Shown here piece after piece: positions 16,695-63,814 of a DNA stretch of 64,000 nucleotides. Position numbers and translations under genes: made by a program. The notes beneath the pieces are model-generated. The model searched no databases. It was not told the origin of the DNA and saw only the letters and a list, made by a program, of their open reading frames with translations. Numbering within the stretch: the stretch's first letter is position 1; each line of letters starts with the position of its first letter. Source of the stretch: Eledone cirrhosa. Lineage: Eukaryota. The stretch lies in NCBI GenBank assembly GCA_964016885.1, contig OZ024741.1, forward strand, positions 38,626,001 through 38,690,000, given 5' to 3'.

Positions 16695-16867
16695 GAGAGT
16701 GAGAGAGAGAGAGGAGAGTTAGAGAGAGAAATATATTTGTGTGTGTAATACCTTGTTTATGGCTCATAACATAGTGGTTCGTCACACAGGCACCGAGAAA
16801 ATAACTAATGGGGTCGATGTGATTGACTAAATACTTTCGCGAAATTTTCCTCTGAACCTAACTAATA

Positions 16868-17134
16868 ATTGTTCGTGGAAACCACCGCATATTCGCGGAA
16901 ACGTAAATATCTTCTGCAATTTTGTTATGGCTTTTTTCGTGACAATATATATGTTTTAACGCTTTTTAACGCTAAATTATTAATAACAATATACTGTACT
17001 TACCGGCCTATATTTTAAGTCAGGAATAGACGTTTATAGTAGGCATTTTTATGGGGCACGTCCAATGTTCGCGGTTTTTCACTCTTCACGGGTGCTCTAA
17101 GAAAGTAACCTCCGCGAATACCGGGGAACAACTG
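16868..17134. mobile_element. pogo/Tigger-like DNA transposon remnant
   Basis: Right end CCGCGAATACCGGGGAACAACTG|TA; internal TATTCGCGG match at 16892. Confidence 0.4.
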
Positions 17135-17179
17135 TATACACAGGTTATTTTATTATACTTCATTTCCAGCTTCATTTCC

Positions 17180-17312
17180 TGCCGAGCTTAACTTTGCCTT
17201 TCATCCTTACGGGGTCGATAAAATAAAGTACCAGTAATGCACTGGTGTTGATTTAATCGACTTTTCCCTCCTCTTTCAAATTGCTGGTTTTGTATCTAAA
17301 GTAGAAACAATT
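17180..17312 (+). mobile_element. SINE, 5'-truncated
   Basis: Family body sequence. Confidence 0.75.
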
Positions 17313-17619
17313 AGTTTATTATATTATTTATACTTTATTAACTATATTTTACAAAAAAAGTAGTTATACAATAATGGAAATATGGAAAGGACAGATAAAA
17401 GATAAAAACAAAATTAAGTAATGAAAAGATTTGGGGGGGGGAGTAAAGAAAGGCACAATCTGGCTGTATAGGCAAGTAGAGGAAAGGACTACAAATTCCA
17501 GAAACGAGAGGAAAGGATAGTAAAAGCAAGGATATTGGGGCCACGGAAGAAAGGGACAGGGGAAGTGTGATAGGCTATTGGGCGGGGAGGTGTTTCGGCT
17601 GCGCCACACGGACGAAACT

Positions 17620-17810
17620 GCAAAGGCATTTCAAGAGACAATGGCCAGCAACACCCGCTGCAACAGCCACCCCACCTCGCGGGGCTCCTTCCCCAGATAG
17701 GCTGTTGACGTTCCGATTTTACGGAGGAACTTGGTAGTACGGGGTTCGAGGACACATGTGGTCTCGACGTGTTCCAGCCGATAGGCTGAGGCAATGCTGG
17801 GGCGCCGCCA
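17620..17810 (-). pseudogene. CRE-clade non-LTR retrotransposon C-terminal fragment
   Basis: VETTCVLEPRTTKFLRKIG...EPREVGWLLQRVLLAIV; homologous to the 51674 and 57161 fragments. Confidence 0.65.
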
Positions 17811-17820
17811 TTGATATATA

Positions 17821-17874
<54 letters not shown>

Positions 17875-17972
17875 ATAATAATAAATTTGAAGACTAAAAT
17901 CCAAAGATGGCTCGATAAGGATAAATATATATCAAATATATAAGAACCGTAGAGCAAATATTTATTAAGATA

Positions 17973-18048
17973 ACAGATTAAAGTTTAAGCAAAGAATCGC
18001 TGCTTTCACCCTTAACGGGATCTTCTGAAACTAACAAAGTCAATCTGT
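17973..18048 (-). ncRNA. Variant hammerhead motif, PLE family A
   Basis: Reverse complement of 15651-15726. Confidence 0.7.
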
Positions 18049-18962
18049 AAACGCAGAACTGGATAATTCAAAAAACGTTGCAACCGGAGGAAGACAGGAA
18101 GACGATACTTTGGTTCGTGGAAACGTTCGCTGGCGAAGATCGGGAAAAAACGAATAATACGTCATTAATAGGAGCGGTGAAAAACAATTACGCGCAAAGA
18201 CAGAACCACGTTTATGGTATAAAAGAGGTCATAGACTAATGTTCTCTTAGGTGGGGCATAGAGACGTTCTCTAGCAATGAACGAAAAAACGAAGATAATA
18301 CGTCATATGTGGAGCGTGAAGAACAATAGCACGCAAAGACACAACCACGTAAATGGTATAGCAGAAGTCGTAGACTAAAATTCTAACTAGGAGACCAAAT
18401 GAATCTCCGCTACAGAGTTAAGAACAAAGTAAATAAATACAATACAGAAGTAATAGAAATAAATAAATACATACACGCAAACAAATACGTACATACACAA
18501 GCATACGCAAAAACTTACCATAGGTATACAAAACCACGCACATATAAATATGTGTGTGTGTGTATGCGTGTATACAAATAAATAAATAATTATATAAACG
18601 TATATAAATAAATAAATACGTATATAACAAGCGCACACACATACCTACATATAAATACACGAATGTTCGGAGACGTAAGTCAACTAAAACATGAAGTCCG
18701 CATATACACACACCCACCATACGTACGAACCTGCATACTCACACAGACGCAAAACTCCTGTATACACATAGCCAAACCATATGTACCAGAATATATAAAA
18801 TTATACTCCAAAACAATCAAATATACGTACGAGAAGGTATACGTACCTTCACAAAACATACGGGTAATATATACTTACCTATGCAAATAAGTAAAGGAAT
18901 AAATAAAACATATACTTAGCTCCCACATCAAGACGTAAAATATCCACGTATAGATCGTACTA

Positions 18963-19470
18963 TCCGTTAGGGTATAACGTGGGGCTGTAATACAGGAAAG
19001 TTTTGTGCAATTTATGTTTACAAGCCGAAATTGCCTCAGATTTCTTGTTTAAGATGTGGTCTATGGCGTAGAGTATTTCCAGGGCCTCAGCGGCGCAGAG
19101 GTCACATGGTCTTTTCTTTTCGACTTCAGATATAAGCTGAAAGTGACGTCATATTCCTTCTTAGAGGGTAACGAAAAGAATGGGTATGCATGTAAAGACG
19201 CTGCTTGAAACTATTGGCGGTTAACCCTATGTAGGCCCTACGGGACGTGGGTGTTACAACCTTACATTTGTAGACAATGTTACTAGAGAGGCATTTCCCG
19301 GATAGGGGGCAATCAGCCCGATTCCTACAATTACAGTTAGTACTAACTACAGGGTTGCACGTGTTCCTACGGCTAGGTAGTTTAGCTAAAGTTGAAGCTG
19401 TGATGTTATGTGCAAGGTTAGGAGTCGTAGAGTAAGAAATTTTAATAGTATTTTTATTAAAAATTTTACT
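18963..19470 (-). pseudogene. Disrupted GIY-YIG domain of the main family A copy
   Basis: Compared with 21085-21630: TGG>TGA and a ~65-nt deletion (equivalent to 21411-21475) at AAAGA microhomology near 19115. Confidence 0.85.
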
Positions 19471-21023
19471 GTTTTATGTGTAGGGGGAAAATGCTTCGTA
19501 ATAAGGGAAAGAAAGAACTTAGCTAAAGGTGTGGCCATCTCCATATTATATGGTGGGTTATACCAACAAATGCGACGGGATCTATTTCTTCTAGGTCTAT
19601 TTTCGTACTCTGTATATGCTACCTTTTCGACAAATCCACTTCGAGCAAGAGCTTCATTGTAATAAGTGGAATGGTCGTTGAAAATACGCTCGTTGGTGGA
19701 AAGACGGGAAAGCCTCAACGAAGCGTTTCTTACCAGGTTCTTGGTTATGCTGGCAGGATGGTTGGAATGCTTACTTATGTAATTAAGCGTGTCATTCGGC
19801 TTTCTATACGGGTAATACAACCCATTCAACAAATTGAGGGTAACGTCGAGGTAATTAACGACCGAGAGATTGGCCTCAACCTGTATAGAGAGGTTGAAGC
19901 CTTTAAAGAAGGCTGTGAGTTCTTTTCTGAACCTATCGAAAGCACGAGGTCCGCACTTAGTCATGGTCAGAAGACCATCGTCACGGTACAAACCACCGCC
20001 CGCGTTGGGGAATTCGTCCTTGATGGAGAAAAGAAGGAAAAGGCCAATAAGATCAGTAACCTCCGCAGAGTCACTGGCGCCCATACTCACGTCGAATGGG
20101 GTACTATTGGATTTTTTAATCCAAATAGAGTCGTCGAAATTAATCACCGACTTTCGGGCATTGAGGATGACATCAACTTCGAAGTCTTTAACCACTGTGA
20201 GTGTTTTAGCGAAATTGATAGCTCTAAGGAGAAGTGGTAAAGTGATGGAGGAGTAGTAATTGTTGATGTCGAATTGGATAAAACGGCAATGTTCCTTGTT
20301 ACATATGCCGTTGAACCAATCAATCACCGCGAAGGAATTGTTCCACAGTGCAAGAGGGGCCACACTTCTAATTTCAGGTATAATTCTATCAAGAATCGTT
20401 TTACTAAGTCTACCTAAATCGGACTTCGTAGGGTTAATAAGCCGAATAGATGGGTTGTTCTGAAAATTGGATTTGTGATCCTTCAGGGTAAAGTGGGGAG
20501 AAATAGGGTCCAGAGGTTCGGTCCGGTCCAGGATGTTGAGATCAGATGTGATTTTAAACCCAGCATCGTTGATTTCATTGATGACGCACCGATTAGTTTT
20601 ACGGTAATCCTTAGTTACAGCATTATGTAGTAGTTGATGGTAAGTACTGCGCTCCACTTGATATAGGTTGCCAGTTTTGTCGGAATGGACGTGCACGGCG
20701 TTAGCATCCTTAATAGAACGAATTCTATTCTTCAGGTCTTGCTGGAAGGAATTGCTCCTATTCCGAAATTTGATACTCCGAATGAGTTCCAAGACATCAT
20801 TTTCGAAGGGTAGCAGTGCTGGGTTCCTCGGGGGGTTATTATAGGTTTTAAATCCAAATTTATCCTGTTTGTTGTCTGCTTTTCGCGGATTATCGAAATA
20901 AAAGGCACGCCAACGCAACCTTTTAATCAACGCATCTGTTTTCTGTATCAGGAGTTTTAGGTATGTTTTCCTGCTTGGTACGGGTATGTTCTTTGTAGAA
21001 ATATTCAGTTGTTGTTTCTGCAT
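19386..21023 (-). CDS. PLE reverse transcriptase (Naiad-like), frameshifted near 19470 before the GIY-YIG domain
   Basis: STKNIPVPS..LIKRLRWRAF, HSDKTGNLY, TLKDHK..RLINP.KSDLG, FIQFDINNYYSSI, FDVSMGASDSAE, GLYRDDGL, YLDVTL, HSNHP. Confidence 0.9.
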   Translation of the reverse strand: MQKQQLNISTKNIPVPSRKTYLKLLIQKTDALIKRLRWRAFYFDNPRKADNKQDKFGFKTYNNPPRNPALLPFENDVLELIRSIKFRNRSNSFQQDLKNRIRSIKDANAVHVHSDKTGNLYQVERSTYHQLLHNAVTKDYRKTNRCVINEINDAGFKITSDLNILDRTEPLDPISPHFTLKDHKSNFQNNPSIRLINPTKSDLGRLSKTILDRIIPEIRSVAPLALWNNSFAVIDWFNGICNKEHCRFIQFDINNYYSSITLPLLLRAINFAKTLTVVKDFEVDVILNARKSVINFDDSIWIKKSNSTPFDVSMGASDSAEVTDLIGLFLLFSIKDEFPNAGGGLYRDDGLLTMTKCGPRAFDRFRKELTAFFKGFNLSIQVEANLSVVNYLDVTLNLLNGLYYPYRKPNDTLNYISKHSNHPASITKNLVRNASLRLSRLSTNERIFNDHSTYYNEALARSGFVEKVAYTEYENRPRRNRSRRICWYNPPYNMEMATPLAKFFLSLITKHFPPTHKTVKFLIKILLKFLTLRLLTLHITSQLQL

Positions 21024-21084
21024 AATGAATATAAGTCAGTAGAGTGCTCAACCGAGGGAGCCAAATAGTAATAATAATATTAAA

Positions 21085-21630
21085 ATGTCTTACTCTACGA
21101 CTCCTAACCTTGCACATAACATCACAGCTTCAACTTTAGCTAAACTACCTAGCCGTAGGAACACGTGCAACCCTGTAGTTAGTACTAACTGTAATTGTAG
21201 GAATCGGGCTGATTGCCCCCTATCCGGGAAATGCCTCTCTAGTAACATTGTCTACAAATGTAAGGTTGTAACACCCACGTCCCGTAGGGCCTACATAGGG
21301 TTAACCGCCAATAGTTTCAAGCAGCGTCTTTACATGCATACCCATTCTTTTCGTTACCCTCTAAGAAGGAATATGACGTCACTTTCAGCTTATATCTGGA
21401 GTCTAAAAGACAACCACACCCAATATAAGTTACACTGGGAGATCCTAGCTAGGGCTAGATCGTATAACGGAAATAAAAGACCATGCGACCTCTGCGCTGC
21501 TGAGGCCCTGGAAATACTCTACGCCATAGACCACATCTTAAACAAAAAATCTGAGGCAATTTCGGCTTGTAAACATAAATTGCACAAAACTTTCCTGTAT
21601 TACAGCCCCACGTTATACCCTAACGGATAG
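21085..21630 (+). CDS. Intact PLE GIY-YIG endonuclease domain in the inverted arm
   Basis: CNCRNRADCPLSGKCL, NIVYKCKV..AYIGLT..FKQRLYMH, CDLC..E..I, LNKKSE..CKH. Confidence 0.85.
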   Translation: MSYSTTPNLAHNITASTLAKLPSRRNTCNPVVSTNCNCRNRADCPLSGKCLSSNIVYKCKVVTPTSRRAYIGLTANSFKQRLYMHTHSFRYPLRRNMTSLSAYIWSLKDNHTQYKLHWEILARARSYNGNKRPCDLCAAEALEILYAIDHILNKKSEAISACKHKLHKTFLYYSPTLYPNG

Positions 21631-22541
21631 TAAGATCTATACGTGGATATTTTACGTCTTGATGTGGGAGCTAAGTATATGTTTTGTTTATTCCTTTACT
21701 TATTTGCATAGGTAAGTATATATTACCCGTATGTTTTGTGAAGGTACGTATACCTTCTCGTACGTATATTTGATTGTTATGGCGTATACTTTTATATATT
21801 CTGGTACATATGGTTTGGCTATGTGTATACGGGAGTTTTGCGTCTGTGTGAGTATGCAGGTTCGTACGTATGGTGGGTGTGTGTATATGCGTACTTCATG
21901 TTTTAGTTGACTTACGTCTCCGAACATTCGTGTATTTATATGTAGGTATGTGTGTGCGCTTGTTATATACGTATTTATTTATTTATATACGTTTATATAA
22001 TTATTTATTTATTTGTATACACGCATACACACACACACATATTTATATGTGCGTGGTTTTGTATACCTATGGTAAGTTTTTGCGTATGCTTGTGTATGTA
22101 CGTATTTGTTTGCGTGTATGTATTTATTTATTTCTATTACTTCTGTATTGTATTTATTTACTTTGTTCTTAACTCTGTAGCGGAGATTCATTTGGTCTCC
22201 TAGTTAGAATTTTAGTCTACGACTTCTGCTATACCATTTACGTGGTTGTGTCTTTGCGTGCTATTGTTCTCCACGCTCCACATATGACGTATTATCTTCG
22301 TTTTTTCGTTCATTGCCAGAGAACGTCTCTATGCCCCACCTAAGAGAACATTAGTCTATGACCTCTTTTATACCATAAACGTGGTTCTGTCTTTGCGCGT
22401 AATTGTTTTTCACCGCTCCTATTAATGACGTATTATTCGTTCTTTCCCGTTCTTTGCCAGCGAACGTTTCCACGAACCAAAGTATCGTCTTCCTGTCTTC
22501 CTCCGGTTGCAACGTTTTTTGAAATATCCAGTTCTGCGTTT

Positions 22542-22617
22542 ACAGATTGACTTTGTTAGTTTCAGAAGATCCCGTTAAGGGTGAAAGCAGCGATTCTTTG
22601 CTTAAACTTTAATCTGT
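22542..22617 (+). ncRNA. Variant hammerhead motif, PLE family A
   Basis: Same sequence as 15651-15726. Confidence 0.7.
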
Positions 22618-22781
22618 TATTTTAATAAATATATATTTATATATATATATATTAATAAAAGAAATTCCAACTTTGTCTGATTTACACGTAAATTTACACG
22701 AGTTAGTTGGAATTCCTTTTATTAATATAATCTTCTATACACAATCATACACACCCGTGTATATCTATTATCTATCTATCC

Positions 22782-22830: not shown

Positions 22831-23792
22831 TATAAATGAGAGGTATAGAGATTGTTTTAGCAAGAAGCTAACGGCATTCTATAACATATATGCGACTATA
22901 ACGTCAAGATGGGAAAAGTAGTTAACGAAAGATTTAGGAAAAATAACTCAAACTCATCTCAAAAGAGAATCAGGATACAAATTCATCCACAGAATTTAGT
23001 AAAATCCAGGGGAAAATCTATAGACCTTTAACTCATGATAAAACAAAGTTTGAAACACTTATCCTTCAATTTGGAATAACATCAAATGCTCTGTATAGTT
23101 TTAAAAGACTATTTCATGAAAACTTTCAGTGGAGATGGTCACGGTTGGAATATCATCATTCATCAGCAGAGCTCAACAGAAAACCAGGGCTCTCACAGTA
23201 ATATAGTCCGAAAAAGGGAATTCTAAAACTGGCTAGTTCGCCTTCATGTGTATTTATGAAACAGCACATGAGGAAAAAACGGGGCTAGTGACGTCAGGAT
23301 GGAAGTGAATGTTTATTTACAAGAAATAGCAGTCAAATACATTCTGAAAAAAAACTCTACAAAGGAGTTCAGCAAAATAGCAATAATTATCACAGTTTTT
23401 ATGAAAAAAACCGGGATTAGTCACAGATAGTTTAAGCACTCTAGGAAAAGAATCCGAGTATAAATATAAATGAGAGGTATAGAGATTGTTTTAGCAAGAA
23501 GCTAACGGCATTCTATAACATATATGCGACTATAACGTCAAGATGGGAAAAGTAGTTAACGAAAGATTTAGGAAAAATAACTCAAACTCATCTCAAAAGA
23601 GAATCAGGTTACAAATTCATCCACAGAATTTAGTAAAATCCAGGGAAAAATCTATAGACCTTTAACTCATGATAAAACAAAGTTTGAAACACTTATCCTT
23701 CAATTTGGAATAACATCAAATGCTCTGTATAGTCTTAAAAGACTATTTCATGAAAACTTTCAGTGGAGATGGTCACGGTTGGAATATCATCA
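22831..23792. repeat. 328-bp near-identical direct duplication (22831-23158 and 23465-23792)
   Basis: Offset 634; only a few substitutions. Confidence 0.9.
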
Positions 23793-24130
23793 AGAGCATC
23801 GAGTGTTCATCTTGGCATACCGCCTGTGAACGCAATTCAATTGCACCTCTACTACCAATATGTATGTATATATATATATATATATACAATATATACATAC
23901 ATATTGGTAGTAGAGGTGCAATTGAATTGCGTTCACAGGCGGTATGCCAAGATGAACACTCGATGCTCTTGGAGAGCAGAGTATCAATAATAACAATAAA
24001 TGGGATCAAAGAATCACTGTTGCATCATATACATATTTAATTGCGTATTACATATGTTTCACTGCCGATCAGCTCGAGGAACGATCGATTAATGTTCGAT
24101 CCTGACTCTGGAATCGGGAGCTCCTCAGCT
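23791..24130 (-). mobile_element. Family H: HHR plus 3' tail, tail duplicated as an ~85-bp inverted repeat around a TA-rich spacer
   Basis: 23791-23872 is the reverse complement of 23889-23971; HHR at 24043-24130. Confidence 0.7.
24043..24130 (-). ncRNA. Hammerhead motif with ~60-nt stem II, family H
   Basis: CTGAGGA-GC[long]GT-GAAA-CATATG-TA; palindromic helix III; stem II homologous to 62475-62535; 5' arm of stem I does not pair. Confidence 0.6.
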
Positions 24131-26189: not shown

Positions 26190-29105
26190 TATAAGAAGTT
26201 GGGACAGTGAAATTAAAATACAAGTCATTCTGATCACATTGAGTTCTTCATGTAGATTGGGCCCCGCAACCGACAGTGGTGAATTCTGTGTGCGCATATA
26301 TATATATAGATATATGTGTGTGCACGTGCAGGGTTTAACATGGATGTGTTGGTCACACAAAGGCATGGTCTGTCAACGAATAAACCTGATTCTACAGAAT
26401 TGGTCTCTGGTCTTTAATAGTAGTGATTCCGTGCGTATGTGTGTTTATATTTTATGACAATTCTATTGGGGTGATAACCCGTTTAGTTTTGGTTTAAATT
26501 TGTTAAGGAATAGATTTTCTTTGTTTATTCTTTGTTGCTGTGTGAACGAATCTGAGCACTTGTAGAAGGGGAAGATTTTAAAGTTGGGTAGTGTCATTCC
26601 TGCGCAGTTCGCAATATGGCTGCTCAAGGGGATTTTTCTTGTGTTAGCGTCCCGGATTTGTTGGCAGTGGATGGTCATTCTTTTGCGTAATGAGGTGCCC
26701 GTCTGTCCAATGTAGTTGTGTTTGCACCCACCGCAAGTTATTGCGTAAATCAAGTTCTCCGAGTTGCAGGTGAAATTGTTTTTTACTGTAAATGTTTGGC
26801 CATCTTTGAATGTAAATGTTTGTCCTTCAGTGAGGTAGAGGCACGTTCCACAGTTTGTTCTACCACATTTGGTAACTGTAGGGTTGAGGATTGGTTTGGG
26901 TATATTTGGTCCAGTGAGAATGCGTTTAAGTGATTTGGGTTGTCTTTTACTTTTAAGGATCTTGTGTGTTTCAAGAATAGACTTCATTTTTACATCTTTA
27001 AGTAGGATGGGGAGGTTTTTGTGTAGGTGATCAAACATTTCGGTATTTCTGGGGTTGAAAGTGGATACATATGGCAGGGTGTTGAGTGTGGTTTTCTGTT
27101 TTGGATTGTTAAGTTGATGGGGATTTAGGTGTTTTGCCCTGTCTATTCCATTGTTGATTATTTCAAGTGGAAAGGCTCTTAAGATAAGGGTGTCTTTTAG
27201 TTCCTTTAGTCTTTGCTCCCGTTTAGGTGGATCTGATACTATGGTACATATACGTTTGGCCAAATTGTAAGGAATGTTAAGTTTTTTATGTTTTGGGTGA
27301 CTTGATGTGAAAAAGAGGTATTGCTTGGAATCTGTGGATTTATAGAATATATCTGTATCTAATTTCCCGTCTATTACAGAGATGAGAATATCCAAGAAGG
27401 CTAATTCCTTATGATTGGATTCCATTGTGAATTGTATGTTATTATCTATGTTGTTTATCATGTTTTTAAACGTAGTAAGTGAGTTCATGTCTTCTTGCCA
27501 TAGGATAAAGCAGTCGTCTAGATATCTTTTCCAATTGGCTTTGAGGTGTGTGTGGAAAGAGTCTCCAAATAAGAGAAGGGACTGACTGTATATTTGTTGT
27601 TCATGGAATCCCATAACTAGGTTGGCATATGTGGGTGCTACTTTCGTGCCCATTGCCGTACCTGATACTTGTCTGTATGTTGAACCATTGAATGTGAAGT
27701 AGTTATTTTGTAGGATAAAGCGGAGTCCGTCAGTGATAAAATCTGTGTTGATGCGTGTCGGTATTTCTGATGGGTGTGTGTTAAGCCAGTATTGGACTGC
27801 TGTTATTCCATAGTTGTGAGGTATGTTTGTGTAGAGGTTTATTACGTCAAAGGAGACAAGAATTGTATTTGCACTTACTGTTTTAGGGAGGTGTTTCAAC
27901 ATGTCAAGGTCATCTCGTATGTAGCTCTGTATATGTTGTAGAAAGGGTTTCAGTAGGATGTCCAGAAAGTTGCTAAGTCTGTGGGTTTCACATGTAGGGC
28001 CTGCTATAATTGGCCTGAGTTTTAGGTCTTCTGGTGGTGTTAGTTCAATGTAATTGTTGGTTGAGGTGTCACATGCATCGTTTATGGGTTTACATTTGTG
28101 GAGTTTCGGTAAGCCGTAAAAAGAGCTTGTATTGCATTTGAAGTGGCTTATATAGTTAAACTCTTTTGTGGTTAAGCTGTTGCGGTATTTATTCAGTAAG
28201 GTCAAAAGGTTCCCCATTGTTTTGGTGTGTTTGTAGTTTTCTGTTTTTTCATAGTATGTGTTGTTTTCTAAAATGTTAAGTGCGAGGGTCCTATAGTAGT
28301 CCGTATTCATAATGACAACAGTACTGCCTTTATCGGCTTCTTTGATAGTTATCTCAGGGTTGTTTCTAAGTGTGAATAATTCTTCCCATTCGTGTGTAGA
28401 TAGGTTTGATTTCGTGTGTTTATTTGTAATTTTTTCATAGGGAAAGTTGGTGATGTGTTCGCAGTACGTGTCCAGTGCTTTATTTCTTCCCTTTTGTGGG
28501 CAGAAATTGCTTTTATTTCTAACCAGTGATTCGTCTTCAGTGTTGGTGTCGTTGTGAAAGAATTCCGTTAGTCGCAGCATTCGGCAGTATTCCATGATGT
28601 CATCCTTCATTTCGGGGAAGTTTGGTTTACGTGGTGTAGGTGTAAATTTCAGGCCCTTACTTAAAATGTTGATTTGTGTGTTGGTTAGAGGTGTCTTTGA
28701 GAGGTTGATTATTTTTGGTTTCTCCTGAGGGGGGGCCATCGAGTATCCTGGTATTTCAGGCTTTTCCCTAAAAAAGGAATGTAGTTTTGTGTGTGATTAT
28801 ATTTTGTTGGTCTGTTGCGTGTGGGTCTGTAGCTTGTTGTTTCATGAGGGTGAATGTGATGGTGGGGGTGGTATGTGTTGTGGTTGTTGATGAGCAAGAG
28901 TTCTGTTGTTGGTTCATGTGGTCTGGGTGCGTTATTTCTGTGGTACAGAGTGTTGAGGTTGGGGGGTTGTCTTTTGTTGGATTGAGGGTGATGTCTGGTG
29001 TGGTTGTGGGTAAGTTCTGTTGTGATTTCAAGTGGTCTGGGTGGATTTCTTCTGAGGAATGTGGTGTGTGTGTTGTGAGTTGGATCTATGTTATTTCGTC
29101 GTTGG
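26190..29105 (-). mobile_element. Neptune-like PLE including UTRs
   Basis: ORF plus flanks; 3' UTR 26220-26295 is homologous to 63870-63935; boundaries approximate. Confidence 0.75.
26463..28739 (-). CDS. Intact PLE polyprotein (RT + Zn-knuckle + GIY-YIG), Neptune-like
   Basis: IINLS..LSKGLKFTPTP, IKEADKG, FYGLPKLHK, LRPII, SFDVINLYTNIP, GTAMGTKVAPTYANL, WKRYLDD, FLDI, SSHP, CGRTNCGTC, NLIYAITC..C..YIGQT..LRKR. Confidence 0.95.
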   Translation of the reverse strand: MAPPQEKPKIINLSKTPLTNTQINILSKGLKFTPTPRKPNFPEMKDDIMEYCRMLRLTEFFHNDTNTEDESLVRNKSNFCPQKGRNKALDTYCEHITNFPYEKITNKHTKSNLSTHEWEELFTLRNNPEITIKEADKGSTVVIMNTDYYRTLALNILENNTYYEKTENYKHTKTMGNLLTLLNKYRNSLTTKEFNYISHFKCNTSSFYGLPKLHKCKPINDACDTSTNNYIELTPPEDLKLRPIIAGPTCETHRLSNFLDILLKPFLQHIQSYIRDDLDMLKHLPKTVSANTILVSFDVINLYTNIPHNYGITAVQYWLNTHPSEIPTRINTDFITDGLRFILQNNYFTFNGSTYRQVSGTAMGTKVAPTYANLVMGFHEQQIYSQSLLLFGDSFHTHLKANWKRYLDDCFILWQEDMNSLTTFKNMINNIDNNIQFTMESNHKELAFLDILISVIDGKLDTDIFYKSTDSKQYLFFTSSHPKHKKLNIPYNLAKRICTIVSDPPKREQRLKELKDTLILRAFPLEIINNGIDRAKHLNPHQLNNPKQKTTLNTLPYVSTFNPRNTEMFDHLHKNLPILLKDVKMKSILETHKILKSKRQPKSLKRILTGPNIPKPILNPTVTKCGRTNCGTCLYLTEGQTFTFKDGQTFTVKNNFTCNSENLIYAITCGGCKHNYIGQTGTSLRKRMTIHCQQIRDANTRKIPLSSHIANCAGMTLPNFKIFPFYKCSDSFTQQQRINKENLFLNKFKPKLNGLSPQ

Positions 29106-29116
29106 TTTATGTAAGG

Positions 29117-30760
29117 GGCATTTCTATGTTTAGATATTATTCAAATTTCTATGTTGTCTATGTTACCGTCGTCGTGTTGTTGTCTGGCATGTTCATATAG
29201 TACTGAACCGTTTTTTCGTCCTTTTAGTTCCCCCCCAGTGTTGGTCTATCCTTTCACCTATGCTACGAGCTGTCTCGCCTATGTATGCTGTTGTCATGTT
29301 TCTGCAAGTACCCTCTGAACATCTTATGCTATAGAATACGTTTCTAGTTTTACAGTTTATCCGGAGGTTTACTTTACATATAATACAATTCCTATTAGTA
29401 CAGTGGGTTTTCTTAAAAGAGTATATATATTGTTATACTTGGGGAGGGTCATATTTGTGTAATAATATTGCCAGAAATAATAACAGAACACACTCACTGT
29501 TTGGTTGGTTTTCGCATCTGTGTCTTTTATATCGGTTAATTTAATTTATTCGGTCCTCAATGTACCATCGACTGACCAACGGTCAAAAATACAGATACAA
29601 TATAGACACAAACACATATATATATAGTCTAACAAAGTTCTTACGTTGCACATCTGCAACATCGTCAGTGGTGCTATTATGTTTCCTCCTGTTGTATTGT
29701 ATGCCTACGCCATCTTTATTTAGTCTGTTTATTTATTTATTTATTTATTTATTTTTGTCTTCTCTGCGTATGCGTTTGCGTGTATGTATAGTGTTTGATG
29801 TGCGATCGTGTTTGGGTGACTGTGTATTGGTTATTGTATTCTAGCTTAGTATACTAGTGTGTGTTTATATGTTTGTTGTTATTGTGCTTGTGTATGTATT
29901 TATTCATTTATTTATACTTCTCTTAGGTCAGTATTGTTTCTTTGGGTGTTGTTGTTATTCCATTCTTTTTTTCTGTTTAGCCTTGGCCTTCTAAGTTCTA
30001 TTTCGCTGGCCTCTCTGATTTGCCTATCTGCTGGGTCATTTCTATGTTTAGATATTATTCAAATTTCTATGTTGTCTATGTTACCGTCGTGTTGTTGTCT
30101 GGCATGTTCATATAGTACTGAACCGTTTTTTCGTCCTTTTAGTCCCCCCCCCCCCAGTGTTGGTCTATCCTTTCACCTATGCTACGAGCTGTCTCGCCTA
30201 TGTATGTTGTTGTCATGTTTCTGCAAGTACCCTCTGAACATCTTATGCTATAGAATACGTTTCTAGTTTTACAGTTTATCCGGAGGTTTACTTTACATAT
30301 AATACAATTCCTATTAGTACAGTGGGTTTTCTTAAAAGGGTAGGTTTTGCTGATCAGGAATTTTATGTTGGTTCCTGACTTTTCTACCACCTTAATCTTT
30401 AAGTGGATCTTTCTCAGGGCCTTTCTACACTGGTTAGCTAATTGCGTCCACAAACATGACACTCTGGTATCTCTGGTTGTCCTACCATGAGGTGGCTTGC
30501 CCTATCTTATGTCTAGTCCTATCTAAGCTATTCCATGATTTGCTCCTGTATAATGGGCAAATTCCTTTCATGTTCAGTTCTATGAGGGTCTTATACTTCT
30601 CCGTGGCTCCTTCATATACTCATAAACACAGTGAGTGTGTTCCGTTATTAATTCTGACAACATTATTACACAAATATGACCCTCCCCAAGTATAACAATA
30701 TTTGTTTCGACACGCGATTTCATATAAAAAACCTCGAAAACTAATTCATCGCCGTTATAT
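29117..30760 (-). mobile_element. PLE family B: tandem 3' fragments (29117-29425, 29430-30620) with inverted tail (30622-30760)
   Basis: CKTRNVFYSIRC..YIGETARSIGERIDQH GIY-YIG; near-identical to 44587-45770. Confidence 0.85.
29631..29672 (-). ncRNA. Family B hammerhead, core-mutated (GAAA>GUAA)
   Basis: CTGACGA-tGTTGCAgatgTGCAAC-GTAA-GAAC-TT. Confidence 0.55.
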
Positions 30761-31796: not shown

Positions 31797-31923
31797 GAGG
31801 TTATATTTAATTTGTTGGGATTCAACAAGCTTAAACATATAACTGATATAAAGCACTCAACAAGTTAGTGGAGTAAATACACAATATATTAATAAATGGA
31901 AACTATATTTATAAAACCATATT

Positions 31924-31989
31924 TATTTTATTATATATGTTTCAAGGGCAACCAAGGCAAATTATGGTGTGCTTTCATCAGATAAAATA
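31924..31989 (-). ncRNA. Type I hammerhead motif, family I
   Basis: tattttat-CTGATGA-AAG[..]CTT-GAAA-catata-TA-ataaaata; 8-bp stem I. Confidence 0.7.
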
Positions 31990-32125
31990 CAGATTTGTTT
32001 TATAAATAAATATTGACATACCCGGAAAAAAGACAACCTCAACGGTTGGAGCTTCCAGGAAGCTCCAACCGTTAAGGTTGTATGTCATGCATCCAACTGT
32101 TAAGGTTGTATGTCATGCATCATCT

Positions 32126-32192
32126 TATTTTATCTGATGAGGACGTACAGTTGAAGTTAGCTCAGTACCTCTGAAATATGTATAATAAAATA
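32126..32192 (+). ncRNA. Type I hammerhead motif, family I, different stem II
   Basis: tattttat-CTGATGA-GGAcGTAC..GTACcTCT-GAAA-TAtgTA-TA-ataaaata. Confidence 0.75.
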
Positions 32193-32237
32193 TACTTGAT
32201 CACACGAATGTCTATTTTTGTTAATATTTTGAATTAA

Positions 32238-42721: not shown

Positions 42722-42796
42722 TGTGTGTGTGTGTGTGCATGTACATTACTCCTTCATCAGAAGAAACAATGAAAACTAAGAAAGATTTTATATATA

Positions 42797-43035
42797 TTAA
42801 AATAACAGATTAAAGTTCAAGCAAAGAATCGCTGCTTTCACCCTTAACGGATATCTTCTGAAACTCAGAAGATCTTCAGAAGATCCCGTTAAGGGTGGAA
42901 ACGGCGATTCTTTGCTTAAACTTTAATCTGTTATTTTAGTAAATATTTGCTCTATGGTTTTTATATATTTGATATACATTTGTCCTTATCGAGCCCTCTT
43001 TGGATTTTAGTCTGCACATTTATTATTATTACTAT
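42797..43035 (+). mobile_element. PLE family A terminal fragment folded back at the ribozyme 5' core
   Basis: 42797-42864 inverted against 42875-42938; junction stutter TCAGAAGATC twice. Confidence 0.85.
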
Positions 43036-43114
43036 ATAAATATATATATATATTTCGTTTCTGAATTTGTTTAGCAAGATTCTTTATCTGAAAACGTGTG
43101 TTGAAACCCGGATG

Positions 43115-43406
43115 TAACACATGCGCAAACTAAGCACACAACACACACAAAAACAAGATGGCGTAGGACAGAACAAAAGAGAGACACAAAAACAAAGGAA
43201 AGAATCCCCAGTCACTGAAGAGGTCACAGAATGTGTGACGAAAGAACTTTGACAATATATAAACAATCATCTGGTTGTGGAACCAACCAACCAACCAACC
43301 AACCGGAAATTTATAAATTCCTAAATTTATAAATTTATTATAATAAATTGAAGTGAAACTACTGGTGCGTGTGTTTCTTATTGGCAACATGACCCTCCCA
43401 AAGTAT

Positions 43407-43411
<5 letters not shown>
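43115..43411 (+). mobile_element. Diverged family B 3' UTR fragment
   Basis: Homologous to the reverse complement of 29430-29780; ends GACCCTCCC.AAGTATAACAA into (TA)n. Confidence 0.65.
43211..43253 (+). ncRNA. Minimal hammerhead, family B variant
   Basis: gtca-CTGAAGA-gGTCAC[7]GTGAC-GAAA-GaaC-TT-tgac; stem II covaries with the 60029 copy. Confidence 0.75.
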
Positions 43412-44502: not shown

Positions 44503-44586
<84 letters not shown>

Positions 44587-44591
<5 letters not shown>

Positions 44592-46530
44592 GTAATATTG
44601 CCAGAATTAATAACAGAACACACTCACTGTTTGGTTGGTTTTCGCTTCTGTGTCTTTTATATCGGTAATCTAATTTATTCGGTCTTCAATGTTGCCATTG
44701 ACTGACCAACGGTCAAAAATAATACAGATACAATATAGACACAAACACATATATATAGTTTATCAAAGTTCTTTCGTTGCACATCTGCGACAACGTCAGT
44801 GGTGCTATTGTTTCCCCCGGGTGCATTGTATTTTCTACGCCATCTTTATTTAGTCTGTTTATATATTTATTTATTTGTTTATTTTATTTTGTCTTCTTTG
44901 CGCATGCGTTTGCGTGTGTGTATAGTGTTTTGTTTGATGTGTGTTCGTGATTGGGTGACTGTGTATTGGTTAATGTATCTTTACTAGTGTGCGTTTATAT
45001 GTGTTTGTTGTTATTGTGCTTGTGTATGTATTTATTTATTTATTTATCTATTTATTTATTTATACTTCTCTTATGTCAGTGTTGTTTGTTTGGGTGTTGT
45101 TATTCCATTCATTCTTTCTGTATAGCCTTGGCCTTCTAAGTTCTATTTCGCTGGCCTCTCTGATTTGCCTATCTGCTGGGTCATTTCTATGTTTAGATAT
45201 TATTCAAATTTCTATGTTGTCTATGTTACCGTCGTGTTGTTGTCTGGCATGTTCATATAGTACTGAACCGTTTTTTCGTCCTTTTAGTCCCCCCAGTGTT
45301 GGTCTATCCTTTCACCTATGCTACGAGCTGTCTCGCCTATGTATGTTGTTGTCATGTTTCTGCAAGTACCCTCTGTACATCTTATGCTATAGACTACGTT
45401 TCTAGTTTTACAGTTTATCTGGGGGTTTACCTTACATATGATACATTTCCTATTAGTACAGTGGGTTTTCTTAAAAGGGTAGATTTTGCTGATCAGGGAT
45501 TTTATGGTGGTTCCTGGCTTTTCTACCAGCTTAATATTTAAGTGGGTCTTTCTCAGGGCCTTTCTACACTGGTTAGCTAATTTCCCTCCAGGGGTAGCTT
45601 CCACAAACATGACACTCTGGTATCTCTGGTTGTCGTACCATGAGGTGGCTTTCCCTATCTTATGTCTAGCCCTATCTAAGCTATTCCATGATTTGCTCCT
45701 GTATAATGGGCAAATTCCTTTCATGTCCAGTTCTATGAGTGTCTTATACTTCTCCATGGCTCCTTCGTATACTCTGACTCTGTCTCTTTGGTTGTAGCCA
45801 GAGAACTGCATGCGATTGATGAAGTGTTGGATGTGTCTTTCCATTTCTGTTGGGTCGCACATGCGGGACACATTCTTCATCACTCGTACCAAATCTGCGA
45901 TCAGAATATTAAACTTAGCACTACTGGATATTGCTGAGTTTTTGAGTATCAGGTATTTGGAGGCCATGGGTTTAGCATAGTGTGAGTGGAGAATTTGGGC
46001 TCTCTCGTCTATAGTGTTAATCCAGAGTTCCGTGTCTAATACAGGTAGTCTATTGTTAGAGTGTTTGGAAGGGTAGTCGATAGTTACAGTTATACTCTGG
46101 TGTATGGAATTAACTATCTGCTTGATGCTTTCCATTGTGCTACGTTCTAAATCAAACTTGTAGTGCTCTCTAGTGGGGATGTTCTTATAACTATATTGAT
46201 ATCGTCTACGTAACGAGAGTACATGATGAGGTCTATGGAGCACTCATTAAGGAGATCTTTAAGTCTCCTTTCCCACCATACCATAAAAAGGTTGGCAACA
46301 TCAACAGCTATGCTGACGCCAATGGCTGCTCCCTCATTTTGGGTGTAGATCTTCTCGTTGAACTTGAATATGTGGCCCTTAGAGTAGTCTTGATACTAGC
46401 CCCTATTGCATGTGCGACCATTTTTCTTACCTGATCATTGCTTTGGGGGGTCCTTATAGCTTTGGTCCACCCAATCCACTTTCCCATGGGAGTCTTTTTA
46501 GCCATTGAGGTTATGGTGGGGGGTCTGGAA
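44587..46530 (-). mobile_element. PLE family B, 5'-truncated and frameshifted
   Basis: RT C-half and GIY-YIG followed by 3' UTR with HHR remnant (44763-44803, core CTGACGT). Confidence 0.88.
45284..46243 (-). pseudogene. PLE family B RT-thumb plus GIY-YIG fragment
   Basis: DYPS..RLPVLDTELW, YAKPMAS, RMQFSGY, VMFVEATPGG.LA, C..C..C, NVVYSIRC..YIGETARSIGER; continues out of frame to RQIREA. Confidence 0.85.
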
Positions 46531-46879
46531 GTATATACTTTCCTTATGCATATTAACGGCTGAGCAGCTTAATTTGCATATCGAGTGAGTTAATCGGCCG
46601 GGTGCACCGAACACGATAAACGGAAAAAATGAAACGAATTTTCATTTTTCACTCTTAGTACGGCTGTTACTTAAATATAAGTATGTATACGTACATACAC
46701 ATATGTATACAGACGTACCGTAGTATGTATATATATATACATGCACACATATATACATGTACGTATGTATCACCGAACATTTATTATAATGCTCGGTGTG
46801 TTTGTAAACAAACATCCCGAATTAAGCCGTACAGTGTCTAGCAACTATCGTTGCTCATTTGTTCAACACTGACAAAGGA

Positions 46880-46922
46880 ACGCTGTACTAGTTTCAAGCT
46901 TATTAGCTATCGTCAGCAACGT
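46880..46922 (-). ncRNA. Type I hammerhead ribozyme, family C, intact
   Basis: Reverse complement of 12005-12047. Confidence 0.85.
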
Positions 46923-47373
46923 ATACTTTCCTGCCAGATGGTTGAAAGTCTGAAAGTATATACTTTCCTTGTGCATATTAACGGCTAAGCAGCCTAATTT
47001 GCATATCGAGTGAGTTAATCGGCCGGGTGCACCGAAAACGATAAACGGAAAAAATGTAACGCAATTTCATTTCTCACTCTTAGTACGGCTGTTACTTGAA
47101 TATAAGTACATGTATACATGTGTGCATGTATGTATATATATATACATACTACTGTACGTCTGTATATATATATGCATGTACGTATACATACTTATATTTA
47201 AGTAACAGCAGTACTAAGAGTGAGAAATGAAATTTCGTTTCATTTTTTCCGTTTATCGTTTTCGGTACCCCGGCCGATTAACTCACTCGATATGCAAATT
47301 AGGCTGCTCAGTTGTTAATACGCATAAGGAAAGTATATACTTTCAGACGTTCAACCATCTGGCAGGAAGGTAT

Positions 47374-47416
47374 ACGTTTCTGACGGTAGGTAATAAGCTT
47401 GAACCTAGTACAGCGT
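47374..47416 (+). ncRNA. Family C hammerhead, inactivated core
   Basis: CTGACGG and GAAC substitutions. Confidence 0.6.
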
Positions 47417-47619
47417 TCCTTTGTCAGTGTTGAACAAACGAGAAACGATGGTTGCTAGACACTGTACGGCTTAATTCGGGATGTTTGTTTACAAACACAC
47501 CGAGCATTATAATAAATGTTCGGTGAATCCATACGTACATGTATATATGTGTGCATGTATGTATATATATATACATACTACTGTACGTCTGTATACATAT
47601 ATGTATGTACGTATACATA

Positions 47620-47717
<98 letters not shown>

Positions 47718-48048: not shown

Positions 48049-48084
48049 CATGTATATATACATGTATATATACATATATATATA

Positions 48085-48585
48085 TGAATGTATGTATAGT
48101 ATATTTGGTAATATACCGTATGTTTAATTAAAAACATTTTGAAGACCTTGCGCCATTATTTTAAAGTAGTGATTAAGTCACTTAATTCATAGTCACTACT
48201 TTAAAATAATAGCGCAAGGTTTTCAAAATATTTTTAATTAAACATACAGTATATTACCAAATATACTATACATACACATGTATACATCGGTATTTCAGAG
48301 CACCAATCCTAATTTTTTATTTTTGCTGGACCGGCAATCCCTCTGTATAATCAGTTCCTGATTATTACTGGAATTCTATAAGAATCCAGCCTTTATAATT
48401 TCCGGCATAGGTCGGCGAGTACGTTGTTCTGAGGAACACCAACAGTGTGAAACAGATCTGTCAGCTTCTCTCCCTTCCTTTGCTGAAAAAAGAAGTGACA
48501 TAGTCACTACTTTAAATAATAGCGCAAGGTCTTCAAAATGTTTAATTAAACATACAGTATATTACCAAATATATTATACATACAT

Positions 48586-52269: not shown

Positions 52270-52699
52270 AGTATAACTCAGATTACATTTATTGTATTCC
52301 GCCATGTAGAGCGAAATTTTCTTTTTTATTTGAATTTGACAAAGCCGGCCATTTATCGCTCGTATACAGGAAGCTGACTGGCCAGTCTGCTGATATGCAA
52401 ATCAGGCAGATCAGTCACTGTGTATTTTTGAAAATAGCATATATTTTCACTAGCTCTGACAGTTTGGCAGGTGAACAGTGAGCTGTACTGATGAAGGGTG
52501 ATACCCAGAAACATCAGTGTCTGCAGTTCTGTTTACATGCCAACACAAGAGCAATAATGAAGTGTTCATTCTAGTGACATGGCTATAAAATTGAAGGTTG
52601 TTTGCATAATTGCAAACGAATCGAATGTTATTATTAAAATTCGAAAAACTCAGATTACATTTATTGTATTCAGCCATGTAGAGCGAAATTTTCTTTTTT
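52270..52699 (+). mobile_element. ORF-less HHR-bearing family D: ~1.15 units of a ~371-nt monomer
   Basis: ACTCAGATTACATTTATTGTATTC..GCCATGTAGAGCGAAATTTTC at 52277 and 52648. Confidence 0.85.
52481..52528 (+). ncRNA. Type I hammerhead ribozyme, family D
   Basis: agctgta-CTGATGA-aGGGtgataCCCa-GAAA-CAtcagTG-TC-tgcagtt; stem I extends with gtgaacag/ctgtttac. Confidence 0.85.
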
Positions 52700-52709
52700 A
52701 CATATATAT

Positions 52710-52787
<78 letters not shown>

Positions 52788-55324: not shown

Positions 55325-55392
<68 letters not shown>

Positions 55393-55433
55393 TATATATT
55401 AATAAATGGAAACTATATTTATAAAACTATATT

Positions 55434-55499
55434 TATTTTATTATACATATTTCAAGGGCAACCAAGGCAAATTATGGTGCACTTTCATCAGATAAAATA
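55434..55499 (-). ncRNA. Type I hammerhead, family I (element 55397-55570)
   Basis: tattttat-CTGATGA-AAG..CTT-GAAA-TAtgTA-TA-ataaaata. Confidence 0.75.
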
Positions 55500-55572
55500 C
55501 AGATTTGTTTTATAAATAAATATTGACATACCCGGAAAAAAGACAGCCTTAACGGTTGGAGCTTCCTGGATA

Positions 55573-59782: not shown

Positions 59783-60917
59783 TAATTTTGCGAGGTTATT
59801 GATATGAAATCGTGTGTCGAAACAAATATTGTTATACTTGGGGAGGATCATATTTGTGTAATAATATTGCCAGAATTAATAACAGAACACACTCACTGTT
59901 TGGTTGATTTTCGCTTCTGTGTCTTTCATATCGGTTAATTTAATTTATTCGGTCCTCAATGTTACCATTGACTGACCAACAGTCAAAGATACAGATATAA
60001 TATAGACACAAACACATATATATAGTCTAACAAAGTCCTTTCGTTGCACATCTGCAACATCGTCAGTGGTGCTATTATGTTTCCTCCTGTTGTATTGTAT
60101 GCCTACGCCATCTTTATTTAGTCTGTTTTTTAATTAATTAATTTATTTTTTGTCTTCTCTGCGCATGCGTTTGCGTGTGTGTATAGTGTTTGATGTGTGT
60201 TCGTGTTTGGGTGACTGTGTATTGGTTATTATATTCTATCTTAGTTTACTAGTGTGTGTTTATATGTGTTTGTTGTTATTGTGCTTGTGTATGTATTTAT
60301 TTATTTATTTATTTATACCTCTCTTAGGTCAGTATTGCTTGTTTGGGTGTTGTTGTTATTCCATTCATTTTTTCTGTTTAGCCTTGGCCTTCTAAGTTCT
60401 ATTTCTCTGGCCCCTCTGATTTGCCTATCTGCTGGGTAATTCCTATGTTTAGATATTATTCTAATTGTTATGTTGTCTATGTTACTGGCATGTTACTGGC
60501 ATGTCTATGTTTAGATATTATTCTAATTTCTATGTTGTCTATGTTACTGGCATGTTCTATAGTACTGGCATGTTACTGGCATGTTCTATAGTACTAGCAT
60601 GTTCACTATACGAACATGCCAGACAACAACACGACGGCAACATAGACAACATAGAAATTAGAATAATATCTAAACATAGAAATGACCCAGCAGATAAGCA
60701 AATCAGAGAGGCCAGCGAAATAGAACTTAGAAGGCCAAGGCTAAACAGAAAAAATGAATGGAATAACAACAACACCAGTCAATGGTAACATTGAGGACCG
60801 AATAAATTAAATTAACTGATATAAAAGACACAGAAGCGAAAAACCAACCAAACAGTGAGTGTGTTCTGTTATTAATTCTGGCAATATTATTAAACAAATA
60901 TGACCCTCCCCAAGTAT

Positions 60918-60923
<6 letters not shown>
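59783..60923. mobile_element. PLE family B 3' fragment folded back at ~60600
   Basis: Minus arm 59783-60600, plus arm 60607-60923 with internal deletion; ATGTTACTGGC stutters at the junction. Confidence 0.85.
60029..60070 (-). ncRNA. Family B hammerhead, intact core
   Basis: acca-CTGACGA-tGTTGCAgatgTGCAAC-GAAA-GgaC-TT-tgtt. Confidence 0.7.
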
Positions 60924-60976
<53 letters not shown>

Positions 60977-62129: not shown

Positions 62130-62465
62130 CCGGGTCCGGGAATCGAAATCACAACCTCACGATTGCGAATGCAATCACCCAACGCACCAGATGACACGTT
62201 TTGTCCTTCAGCAAGACACTTTATTCCACGTTGCTCCTACTACCGACAGATAGACAGATAGCATTAACAATTAGAAAGACCAATAGATACATTGTATTCC
62301 CGGTACCATTTGACGAGCTCCACCACTCGTAACGATTGGTTACGCCTTCATTACGTTTATTGCTTGGTGACGCGCGTTTCGCCACTGATCAGCTCAAGGT
62401 TCGATCTGTATCGATCTGACCCGACTCTGTAATCCGCGGTTTTTTTTCCATTAACATTACAAGGA

Positions 62466-62549
62466 GTCTGACGAGCCGCGGATTACAGAGTCGGGTCTGA
62501 TCAAATATAGATCGAACCTTGAGCTGATCAGTGGCGAAACGCGCGTCAC
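62466..62549 (+). ncRNA. Family H hammerhead with ~60-nt stem II, inside inverted repeat 62335-62582
   Basis: gt-CTGACGA-GCC[55]GGC-GAAA-CGCGCG-TC-ac; palindromic helix III. Confidence 0.75.
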
Positions 62550-62638
62550 CAACCAATAAACGTAATGAAAGAGTAACCAATCATCCTTGTTATCTTATTT
62601 CACTATATATATATATATATATAGTTTTAATATAGATG

Positions 62639-62689
62639 AGATTCTACAGGACTAGAACTGTTTCATTCTTTAGAAATCATCAGGAATCT
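62639..62689 (-). ncRNA. Family G hammerhead
   Basis: Reverse complement of 63358-63408. Confidence 0.8.
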
Positions 62690-63129
62690 GGCTTTCCAAA
62701 ATAAATGTTATGGTATTTATATCTTTTTAGGTGGTAGGAGAGGGCGGGGAGTGGGGTCGGTGGACGTCATTGGTTGAAAGAAAAGGGAATTCATTAAAAG
62801 CTAATACTTAAAGGCTATAATGTATATTTAGAGTGACAAAGGCAGAGAGAATTCTATAAACAAGTTCAGAATCAGGTGCCACTCCTTATTTTTAAGTTTC
62901 TCTTAAGCTAACAATGCCTATATTTCAGGTGTCTATAAGATGGTTGGGGGGTCGGTCATGGTTGATGGATTTAAAGAAAAGGGAAATTCTTTAAAAGCTA
63001 ATTCTTTTAAGCTCTACTGAGAGTGACAGAGGCCAAGAGAATTCTATAAACCAGTTCAAAATATTGGGTACCTATCATATTATTGTCATGTTTCTCTTAA
63101 GCTATATTCCAGGTGTCAACAGACACATT

Positions 63130-63184
<55 letters not shown>

Positions 63185-63357
63185 TGTTAGCTTAAGAGAA
63201 ACTTAAAAATAAGGAATGGCACCCCAATCTGAACTTGTTTATAGAATTCTTTCTGCCTTTGTCACTCTAAATATAAATTATAGCCTTAAAGAATTAAGTT
63301 TTAATGAAATCCGTTTCTTTCAACCAATGACCTCCACAACATTTATTTTGGAAAGCC

Positions 63358-63408
63358 AGATTCCTGATGATTTCTAAAGAATGAAACAGTTCTAGTCCTG
63401 TAGAATCT
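63358..63408 (+). ncRNA. Family G hammerhead
   Basis: agattc-CTGATGA-tTTCtaaaGAAt-GAAA-CAGttctagtcCTG-TA-gaatct; 6-bp stem I, 4-bp helix III, GUA site. Confidence 0.8.
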
Positions 63409-63506
63409 CATCTATATTAAAACTGTTATACTCTGCTATGTATTGAGTACCTTACTTACTGTGGTTACCTCCGATTCAACCCGGAATAACTTACCTATAT
63501 ATATAT

Positions 63507-63814
63507 AGAAAAAAAGATGAAATCGAAAATGCAACTGGAGTCTTATTTTAAAAAATATATATATTTATTTGGTTCCTTTACCGGTTTCGCAGTTCTTCTG
63601 CTTTTCAAAAGTAGAGTTGAGATGGAGGGTCTGTGGTTTTTCAACTCTACTTTTGAAAAGCAGAAGAACTGCGAAACCGGTAAAGGCACCAAATAAATAT
63701 ATATATTTTTTAAAATAAGACTCCAGTTGCATTTTCGATTTCATCTTTTTTTCTTTATACTTTCACTCGTGTAGGACACCTCGGTTATTTTTCATTTTGT
63801 TAAAAGATCCTCAC

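Follow-up and report, generated by a model that had tools for sequence, protein, structure and literature searches.

A retrozyme-like inverted repeat joined directly to a 5'-truncated PLE in the genome of Eledone cirrhosa

Introduction

PLEs have been proposed as carriers of animal retrozymes from the co-occurrence of the two and from pLTR similarity (Cervera and de la Pena, 2020, PMC7229834; Li et al., 2026, bioRxiv 10.64898/2026.07.22.740005). In the passages of both papers that deal with mobilisation, its mechanism is still to be shown. Word searches of the two texts returned no passage on inverted insertions or on PLE junctions. Inverted, PLE-fused or octopus retrozymes were also not found in titles and abstracts, with subscription journals outside the coverage; supplements could list the repeat family and the PLE clade described here.

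PLEs are known to form complex insertions which, according to the relevant part of Craig et al. (2021; PMC8557442), include partial tandems, inverted 5'-truncated copies, tails, and a bias towards (TA)n. At AT-rich DNA, a PLE protein was shown in vitro to cleave the two strands and to extend both of them, and it is able to use uncleaved RNA, hammerhead cleavage being dispensable (PMC11167929, in part). Chimeras of the U6/L1 type are explained by template switching or ligation where the two parts are in the same sense, and by twin priming where they are in opposite sense (PMC13174262, in part).

Here, we describe a composite locus of E. cirrhosa, in which one arm of an inverted pair of a small hammerhead repeat, family C, adjoins a 5'-truncated PLE, named PLE-B. 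The window analysed is a stretch of 64,000 nt from contig OZ024741.1 (positions 38,626,001 to 38,690,000), which is rich in (TA)n and dense in PLEs and small hammerhead repeats. All coordinates refer to this window.

Anatomy of the composite locus

The composite is 3.0 kb long and is bounded by a (TA)n tract on each outer side. The left tract (44543–44587) lies at the 3' end of the PLE-B copy and the right one (47623–47706) at the end of the family C pair; they would be the left and right priming sites, respectively. Family C is a circularly permuted repeat of 425–429 nt that carries a type I hammerhead motif. The 3' ends of its two arms are both directed outward. The minus-strand arm (46523–47108; ~586 nt) has a period of 425 nt (anchors 46663/47088), comprises 1.38 units, and ends at PLE-B. 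The plus-strand arm (47106–47625; ~520 nt) has a period of 429 nt (anchors 47158/47587), comprises 1.21 units, and enters the right (TA)n tract with its 3' end. Self-BLAST gave an inverted match at 46672–47629 (91% over 970 columns; E reported as 0.0), past which the minus arm continues as far as 46523. The segments 46770–47027 and 47269–47526 are 95% complementary.

An earlier reading of this DNA, made from the sequence only, had described two more-than-unit arms diverging from about 47115. The opposed arms are real and both exceed one unit, with the refinement that each of them carries a single hammerhead. The arms meet, however, not at 47115, where a local palindrome of 14 nt has its midpoint, but at 47106–47108, where they overlap by 3 nt (6 of 7 positions match over 47102–47108). 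This junction sits at the start of a TA-rich block of 99 nt, itself quasi-palindromic, which forms the inversion centre (47102–47200, plus strand) and recurs as a second copy within the minus arm (46672–46770, minus strand).

Of its second unit, the minus arm includes ~155 nt to which the plus arm does not extend; fold-back copying of newly made cDNA was therefore rejected as the origin of the pair. Three subfamily markers are common to both arms and missing from the family C copy at 11.7 kb. Overall distances barely separate the loci: 8–9 in 136 positions between the arms versus 10–11 in 136 between the arms and the 11.7-kb copy. In a second segment, the distance between the arms is not lower (8 versus 5–7 in 165 to the 11.7-kb copy), so that the case for a common template of both arms is that of the three markers only. 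A-to-I editing was rejected as the cause of the differences between the arms; with the shared marker set aside, A>G accounts for 1 of 14 plus-arm changes.

Hammerhead motifs of the two arms

The hammerhead of the minus arm (46880–46922, minus strand; cut predicted after 46886) has the family-consensus form. Its stem I runs from 46922 to 46880 and its core lies at 46916; helix I has 6 bp, helix II has 4 bp after a U.U mismatch, and helix III is palindromic with 2 bp. This is the architecture given for the canonical metazoan type I hammerhead in the pertinent passage of PMC4209133 (helix I of 6 bp, helix II of 4 bp, and a short palindromic helix III), except that in family C U.U stands in place of the conserved G10.1–C11.1 pair. 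The same motif, identical in sequence, is present at 12005–12047 (plus strand). The plus-arm counterpart (47374–47416, plus strand) is decayed, with four changes that affect the first pair of stem I, A9, stem II, and position 15.1. The intact motif and the period of ~425 nt noted earlier for the minus arm were both borne out, with 6/6 stem I and 4/4 stem II pairs formed. The same is true of the ~429-nt plus arm with its CUGACGG and GAAC, for which two further changes were found, which disrupt the first pair of stem I and a pair in stem II. The CUGANGA core, GAAA, and UH are kept in two of the three family C hammerhead copies.

A descriptor scan, run without a shuffle control, gave seven hammerhead matches in the window and revealed a mismatch at the place of G10.1–C11.1 in two other hammerhead families as well. 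No hammerhead was among the Rfam matches listed for the whole window and for a 301-nt arm; those listed were microRNA-like matches from TA-rich palindromes and one snoRNA (E 2.6). The isolated 75-nt hammerhead motif folds no better than its shuffles (z −0.75). Searched for as an exact string, the hammerhead core gave 0 matches in metagenome contigs and 0 in viral contigs.

The hammerheads make up 86 of 751 nt and received 4 of the 23 changes counted in both arms (p = 0.27). For the plus arm alone, the excess reaches p = 0.049 in a post hoc comparison. The changes in the plus-arm hammerhead fit ordinary random decay, and selective inactivation of one ribozyme was not accepted. The contrast between one intact and one mutated ribozyme, to which the sequence-only reading had drawn attention, is thus real but holds no signal beyond decay.

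Characteristics of family C

The units of family C comprise 425, 429, and 421 nt and are accompanied by partial tandem copies in head-to-tail orientation. With the exception of low-complexity ones, they contain no ORFs of 120 or more amino acids. The circular fold of the monomer is 65–69% paired (z −5.7 to −8.6; 40 shuffles each), part of this self-pairing coming from the TA-rich block. In run X1, the summed contig depth, which is not a copy number, was 0.17–1.9 million over family C and 0.08–0.46 million over PLE-B. The reads contain at least three subfamilies of C, and a related family that has the hammerhead in common with it. As judged from these sequence features, family C is a non-LTR retrozyme-like element, for which cleavage and circles are predicted. 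Among the sequencing runs listed as carrying the sequence, there was no RNA data set. Its match to another hammerhead family of the window, family D, was equalled by none of 200 shuffles; D is ~60% like C.

Two loose ends, at 46681–46683 and at 46858, were observed in the read data. Thousands of reads share the C hammerhead and the TA-rich block and then diverge at these positions. They represent a sister family, possibly the terminal repeat of an autonomous PLE.

Family C shares with metazoan non-LTR retrozymes, as characterised in passages of PMC7229834, a non-coding unit repeated head to tail, a single type I hammerhead per unit, a (here predicted) self-paired circle, high copy number, and co-occurrence with PLEs. 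It differs from the metazoan retrozymes in these accounts by a unit slightly longer than the 170–400 nt quoted for invertebrates, by the U.U mismatch, and by the form of its copies, which are inverted arms of 1.2–1.4 units in (TA)n instead of tandem arrays. Unlike the retrozymes covered in the corresponding part of Li et al. (2026), it showed no similarity above that of shuffles to the PLE ends compared from the window. The same source takes at least two consecutive complete hammerheads as the mark of an "active" element; the composite has one hammerhead per arm, on opposite strands, which concerns this locus and not family C as a whole. Because there is one hammerhead per strand with no same-sense dimer partner, and because a read-through RNA would fold into a long duplex (89% paired), the composite is probably a dead copy.

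The PLE-B copy and its relatives

The PLE-B copy (44588–46526, minus strand) is 5'-truncated and frameshifted. It retains RT motifs B' and C, a Cys linker, part of the GIY-YIG domain, and the 3' UTR; the truncation falls between motif A and motif B', in the fingers of the RT. The 3' UTR contains a putative hammerhead, recognised from its core only (44765–44799, minus strand), with A9 altered in this copy. The terminal ~22 nt present in other PLE-B copies are missing here, and PLE-B 3' ends in general lie at several sites within ~85 nt. A plus-strand, pLTR-like piece at 43024–43410 has a hammerhead core near 43216, is followed by (TA)n, and shares its ~25-nt terminus with PLE-B.

The YVDD and B' motifs are followed by the C-terminal GIY-YIG motif VY..I.C...YIGET, which identifies PLE-B as an EN+ PLE. 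Its endonuclease gave a weak BLAST match to the EN of another PLE. Pfam returned nothing for the PLE-B fragment of the window and only a sub-threshold RVT_1 for protein P0043. The linker preceding the EN, CX4CX2C, fits the CX2-5CxxC pattern described for PLEs of the Neptune/Nematis type (PMC8557442, in part). The top-scoring protein relative is annotated from Octopus vulgaris (61% identity). Motifs A and B' are separated by 131–135 amino acids in 20 PLE-B relatives, versus 63–64 in two other PLEs of the window. The PLE-B lineage (44588–46526; proteins P0016–P0066) has an insertion of ~70 amino acids in the RT fingers; a fingers insertion of ~20 amino acids is described, in the relevant portion of Craig et al. 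(PMC8557442), for N-terminal EN+ clades and is absent from canonical clades. On these sequence characters, the lineage is possibly an under-described PLE clade.

The junction between family C and PLE-B

Family C and PLE-B are joined in the same sense, C lying 5' of the truncated PLE. Similarity to long PLE proteins begins exactly at the RPPT codons, at 46526. Comparison of contigs from runs X5 and X1 showed that 4 nt (46523–46526) are common to PLE-B and family C; the chance of such an overlap at a join is ~0.02 (0.019). No (TA)n is present at the junction, the longest TA run within the next 30 nt being 3 nt. The direct joining of the minus arm's 3' end to the truncated PLE-B, as proposed from the sequence, is therefore confirmed, and the check for microhomology suggested for 46520–46535 was positive. 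A TSD or the remainder of PLE-B, which would point to nested insertion, was also looked for in the window. No shared 6-mer qualified as a TSD, which a (TA)n target hides, and the upstream part of PLE-B was not found elsewhere in the window; a simple nested insertion with TSD was rejected on these grounds.

Three contigs of run X5, which bears the label of another organism, pass 46526 as PLE coding sequence matching the O. vulgaris protein, and it is from these contigs that the PLE-B sequence upstream of 46526 is known. In run X1, 20 contigs go on as family C at the junction. None of the 24 contigs and reads listed from four runs, out of a set with 13,545 more, bridges it; each continues as PLE-B or as C. 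Among the pieces listed there is thus no sign of a high-copy chimeric subfamily. Of the five 3' ends of family C arms located in the window, the junction accounts for one, and no second example occurred among the pieces listed. The minus arm ends ~62 nt short of the predicted second cleavage site; RNA ligation at the ribozyme cut was rejected for this reason.

Differences near fixation in run X1 (at least 98%) numbered 13 within the 827 nt compared for PLE-B and 8 within the 411 nt compared for family C (p = 0.65). They were counted among 40 of 245 difference rows, with partial rows, including 46210 and 46768, excluded. The two parts are therefore of similar apparent age.

Other inverted and hammerhead elements in the window

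The palindrome is not special to this locus: inversions of the same outward-facing type are formed elsewhere in the window by PLE-B, by further hammerhead repeats, and by family C itself. Two of the three family C loci (11625–12315 and 46523–47625) have outward-facing arms inverted about the TA-rich block. Inversions were also found in hammerhead families D (2961–3497; one of two loci) and F (62623–63424; one of one). The PLE-B loci at 29427–30755 and 59783–60925 are inverted doubles that face outward and end in (TA)n at either side. It is thus common for PLE-B to have a second arm in opposite orientation, and in the composite family C fills that place.

Of the five 3' ends of family C arms, four enter (TA)n, the exception being the end at PLE-B, which lies at a G-rich site. 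No 3' end coincides with the cleavage site and all three long arms read through it, so that the template would have been a circle or an uncleaved multimer. Three ends (2861, 11625–11629, and 12315) fall within ~10 nt of the unit, which suggests a preferred RT start site comparable to the internal ones reported from a lizard PLE.

At least three further hammerhead families (D, E, and F) are present in the window, at 2961–3497, 52293–52710, 62623–63424, 31874–32236, and 55384–55570. Families D and F have a mismatch at 10.1/11.1. Two related hammerheads with differing helix II lie at 31.9–32.2 kb, seemingly head to head. Near-perfect palindromes of 140–260 nt were seen at 3552–3691, 23791–23971, 42790–42946, 48070–48293, 62334–62582, and 63502–63759. 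The Rfam microRNA matches at 23.8 kb, which are below gathering scores, are a product of the palindrome there.

Origin of the composite

Flanked by (TA)n on both outer sides and similarly diverged in its two parts, the composite is best read as a single two-primer insertion into (TA)n with a template switch, to which we assign a probability of roughly 0.6. From the observed coordinates, polarity, microhomology, (TA)n ends, divergences, and parallel structures in the window, we infer a single event, a circular template, and all of the following enzymatic steps. A PLE endonuclease would have cut both strands of the (TA)n target, and the left end would have served as primer for reverse transcription of a PLE-B RNA from near its 3' end. 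Having copied 1.94 kb, the RT would have switched at the 4-nt match to a circular or uncleaved multimeric C RNA, copying 1.38 units. The right end would have primed on C RNA of the same subfamily, with 1.21 units copied, and the two cDNAs would have been joined at the TA-rich palindromic block to give outward-facing arms in the geometry of twin priming. All parts would then have decayed neutrally, by ~2–3%. For this course of events, two or three RNA molecules have to be assumed, along with two jumps or joins. Equal divergence would also result from overlapping activity periods of the two families.

A switch from PLE-B RNA onto family C RNA had already been proposed in the sequence-only reading. 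Polarity, microhomology, the outer (TA)n tracts, divergence, and the lack of a TSD or PLE-B remainder in the window speak for it, but a later end-joining deletion equally predicts the microhomology and the same junction. PLE-B and the inverted C would in that case have been inserted separately, in either order, into one (TA)n-rich patch, and a deletion using the microhomology would have taken away the 5' part of PLE-B together with the last stretch of the C arm and the intervening (TA)n. Insertions are densely packed in the window, neighbours are stacked in (TA)n (e.g. C and D at 2653–3497), a stand-alone inverted family C is known at 11625–12315, and microhomology of 4 nt is typical of end-joining deletions. 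Yet three events plus similar ages would be required. Moreover, three of the four other C 3' ends lie ~90–100 nt earlier in the unit, and the present arm, to end there, would have had to be longer than two units, while arms in the window do not exceed 1.4 units. We consider this origin the main rival, though clearly less probable.

The outward-facing geometry is also what twin priming of family C alone would produce, as in the copy at 11.6 kb, and other C ends overlap (TA)n, i.e. show microhomology at the priming end. Family C could then have been inserted into an existing PLE-B, whose DNA, annealed via the 4-nt match, served as the left primer, with a target deletion up to the nearby (TA)n. 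Such nesting is improbable: the site is G-rich, unlike four of the five C 3' ends, neither a TSD nor the PLE-B remainder is present in the window, and by divergence C is not younger than PLE-B. Least credible, with very little probability left to it, is a chimeric RNA formed beforehand, either by ligation of cut C RNA to a PLE-B fragment or by read-through of a high-copy chimeric master locus. RNA ligation is a recognised route to U6/L1 chimeras (PMC13174262, in part) and hammerhead cleavage yields ligatable ends (PMC7229834, in part), but the join is placed away from the predicted cleavage site and shows microhomology, and bridging pieces were missing from the 24 listed in four runs.

The proposed single insertion has counterparts in described systems. 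With complex PLE insertions, as presented in parts of PMC8557442, the composite has in common the 5' truncation, an inverted adjoining segment, a microsatellite target, the lack of a discernible TSD, and a variable 3' start. In contrast to these, it is an unrelated non-coding retrozyme family, and not the PLE itself, that supplies the tandem and inverted segments. It also resembles the U6/L1, Alu/L1, and tRNA/L1 chimeras dealt with in passages of PMC13174262, in which a small abundant RNA is joined directly to the 5' end of a truncated autonomous element. Unlike in those L1 chimeras, the enzyme here would be a PLE RT with GIY-YIG, both orientations occur in one insertion, the example is single, and no TSD is available as proof of a single event.

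PLE-B as a candidate mobilising enzyme

The junction had been taken to nominate PLE-B as the mobilising enzyme of family C. This goes too far, because the junction is single, family C and PLE-B share no detectable terminal homology, other PLEs are present, and PLE-B is itself fused to another PLE. Similarity between family C and the PLE-B UTRs did not exceed that of shuffles (45 and 147 of 200 shuffles as good), nor did similarity to four other PLE-end test segments, and family C was rejected as the pLTR of PLE-B. The window contains two further PLE families: PLE-A with Hydra-like motifs (DKT, CxCX5C) and another one with a Neptune-like linker. The 5' side of the latter directly adjoins a PLE-B fragment (~29117–29426), with no (TA)n between them; cross-family joins are thus not special to family C. 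At most, PLE-B can be named as the enzyme for this one event, and it is doubtful that it is the main carrier of family C.

The region 29085–29460 is a same-strand chain of a PLE-B copy, a short TA stretch, the PLE-B fragment, and the 5' side of the Neptune-like PLE (ORF 26463–28796). PLE-A (14643–22700) displays the Hydra-clade-like motifs DKT, RLRW, and CxCX5C. Its ORF is internally inverted (19386–21035, minus; 21043–21630, plus), and its terminal repeat of 1.1–1.2 kb is present in three copies.

Implications

The composite consists of known parts in a new arrangement, which hints at the enzyme that spreads the retrozyme without settling its identity. Direct PLE–retrozyme junctions and PLE-style inversions are mechanistic footprints, in the way that U6/L1 chimeras are for L1. 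The locus thereby points to a genome-wide count of junctions per PLE family, with polarity, and to a candidate pair of RT and RNA. A broader reading, which we offer tentatively and regard as unlikely to hold in full, is that the RT of PLE-B copied an unrelated C circle, primed afresh on C RNA at the other target end, and, more widely, carries the retrozymes of this genome in trans. These retrozymes would then be inserted by PLE-type two-end priming in (TA)n, with no pLTR shared with PLE-B. If this is true, chimera counts would identify partnerships between retrozymes and PLEs directly.
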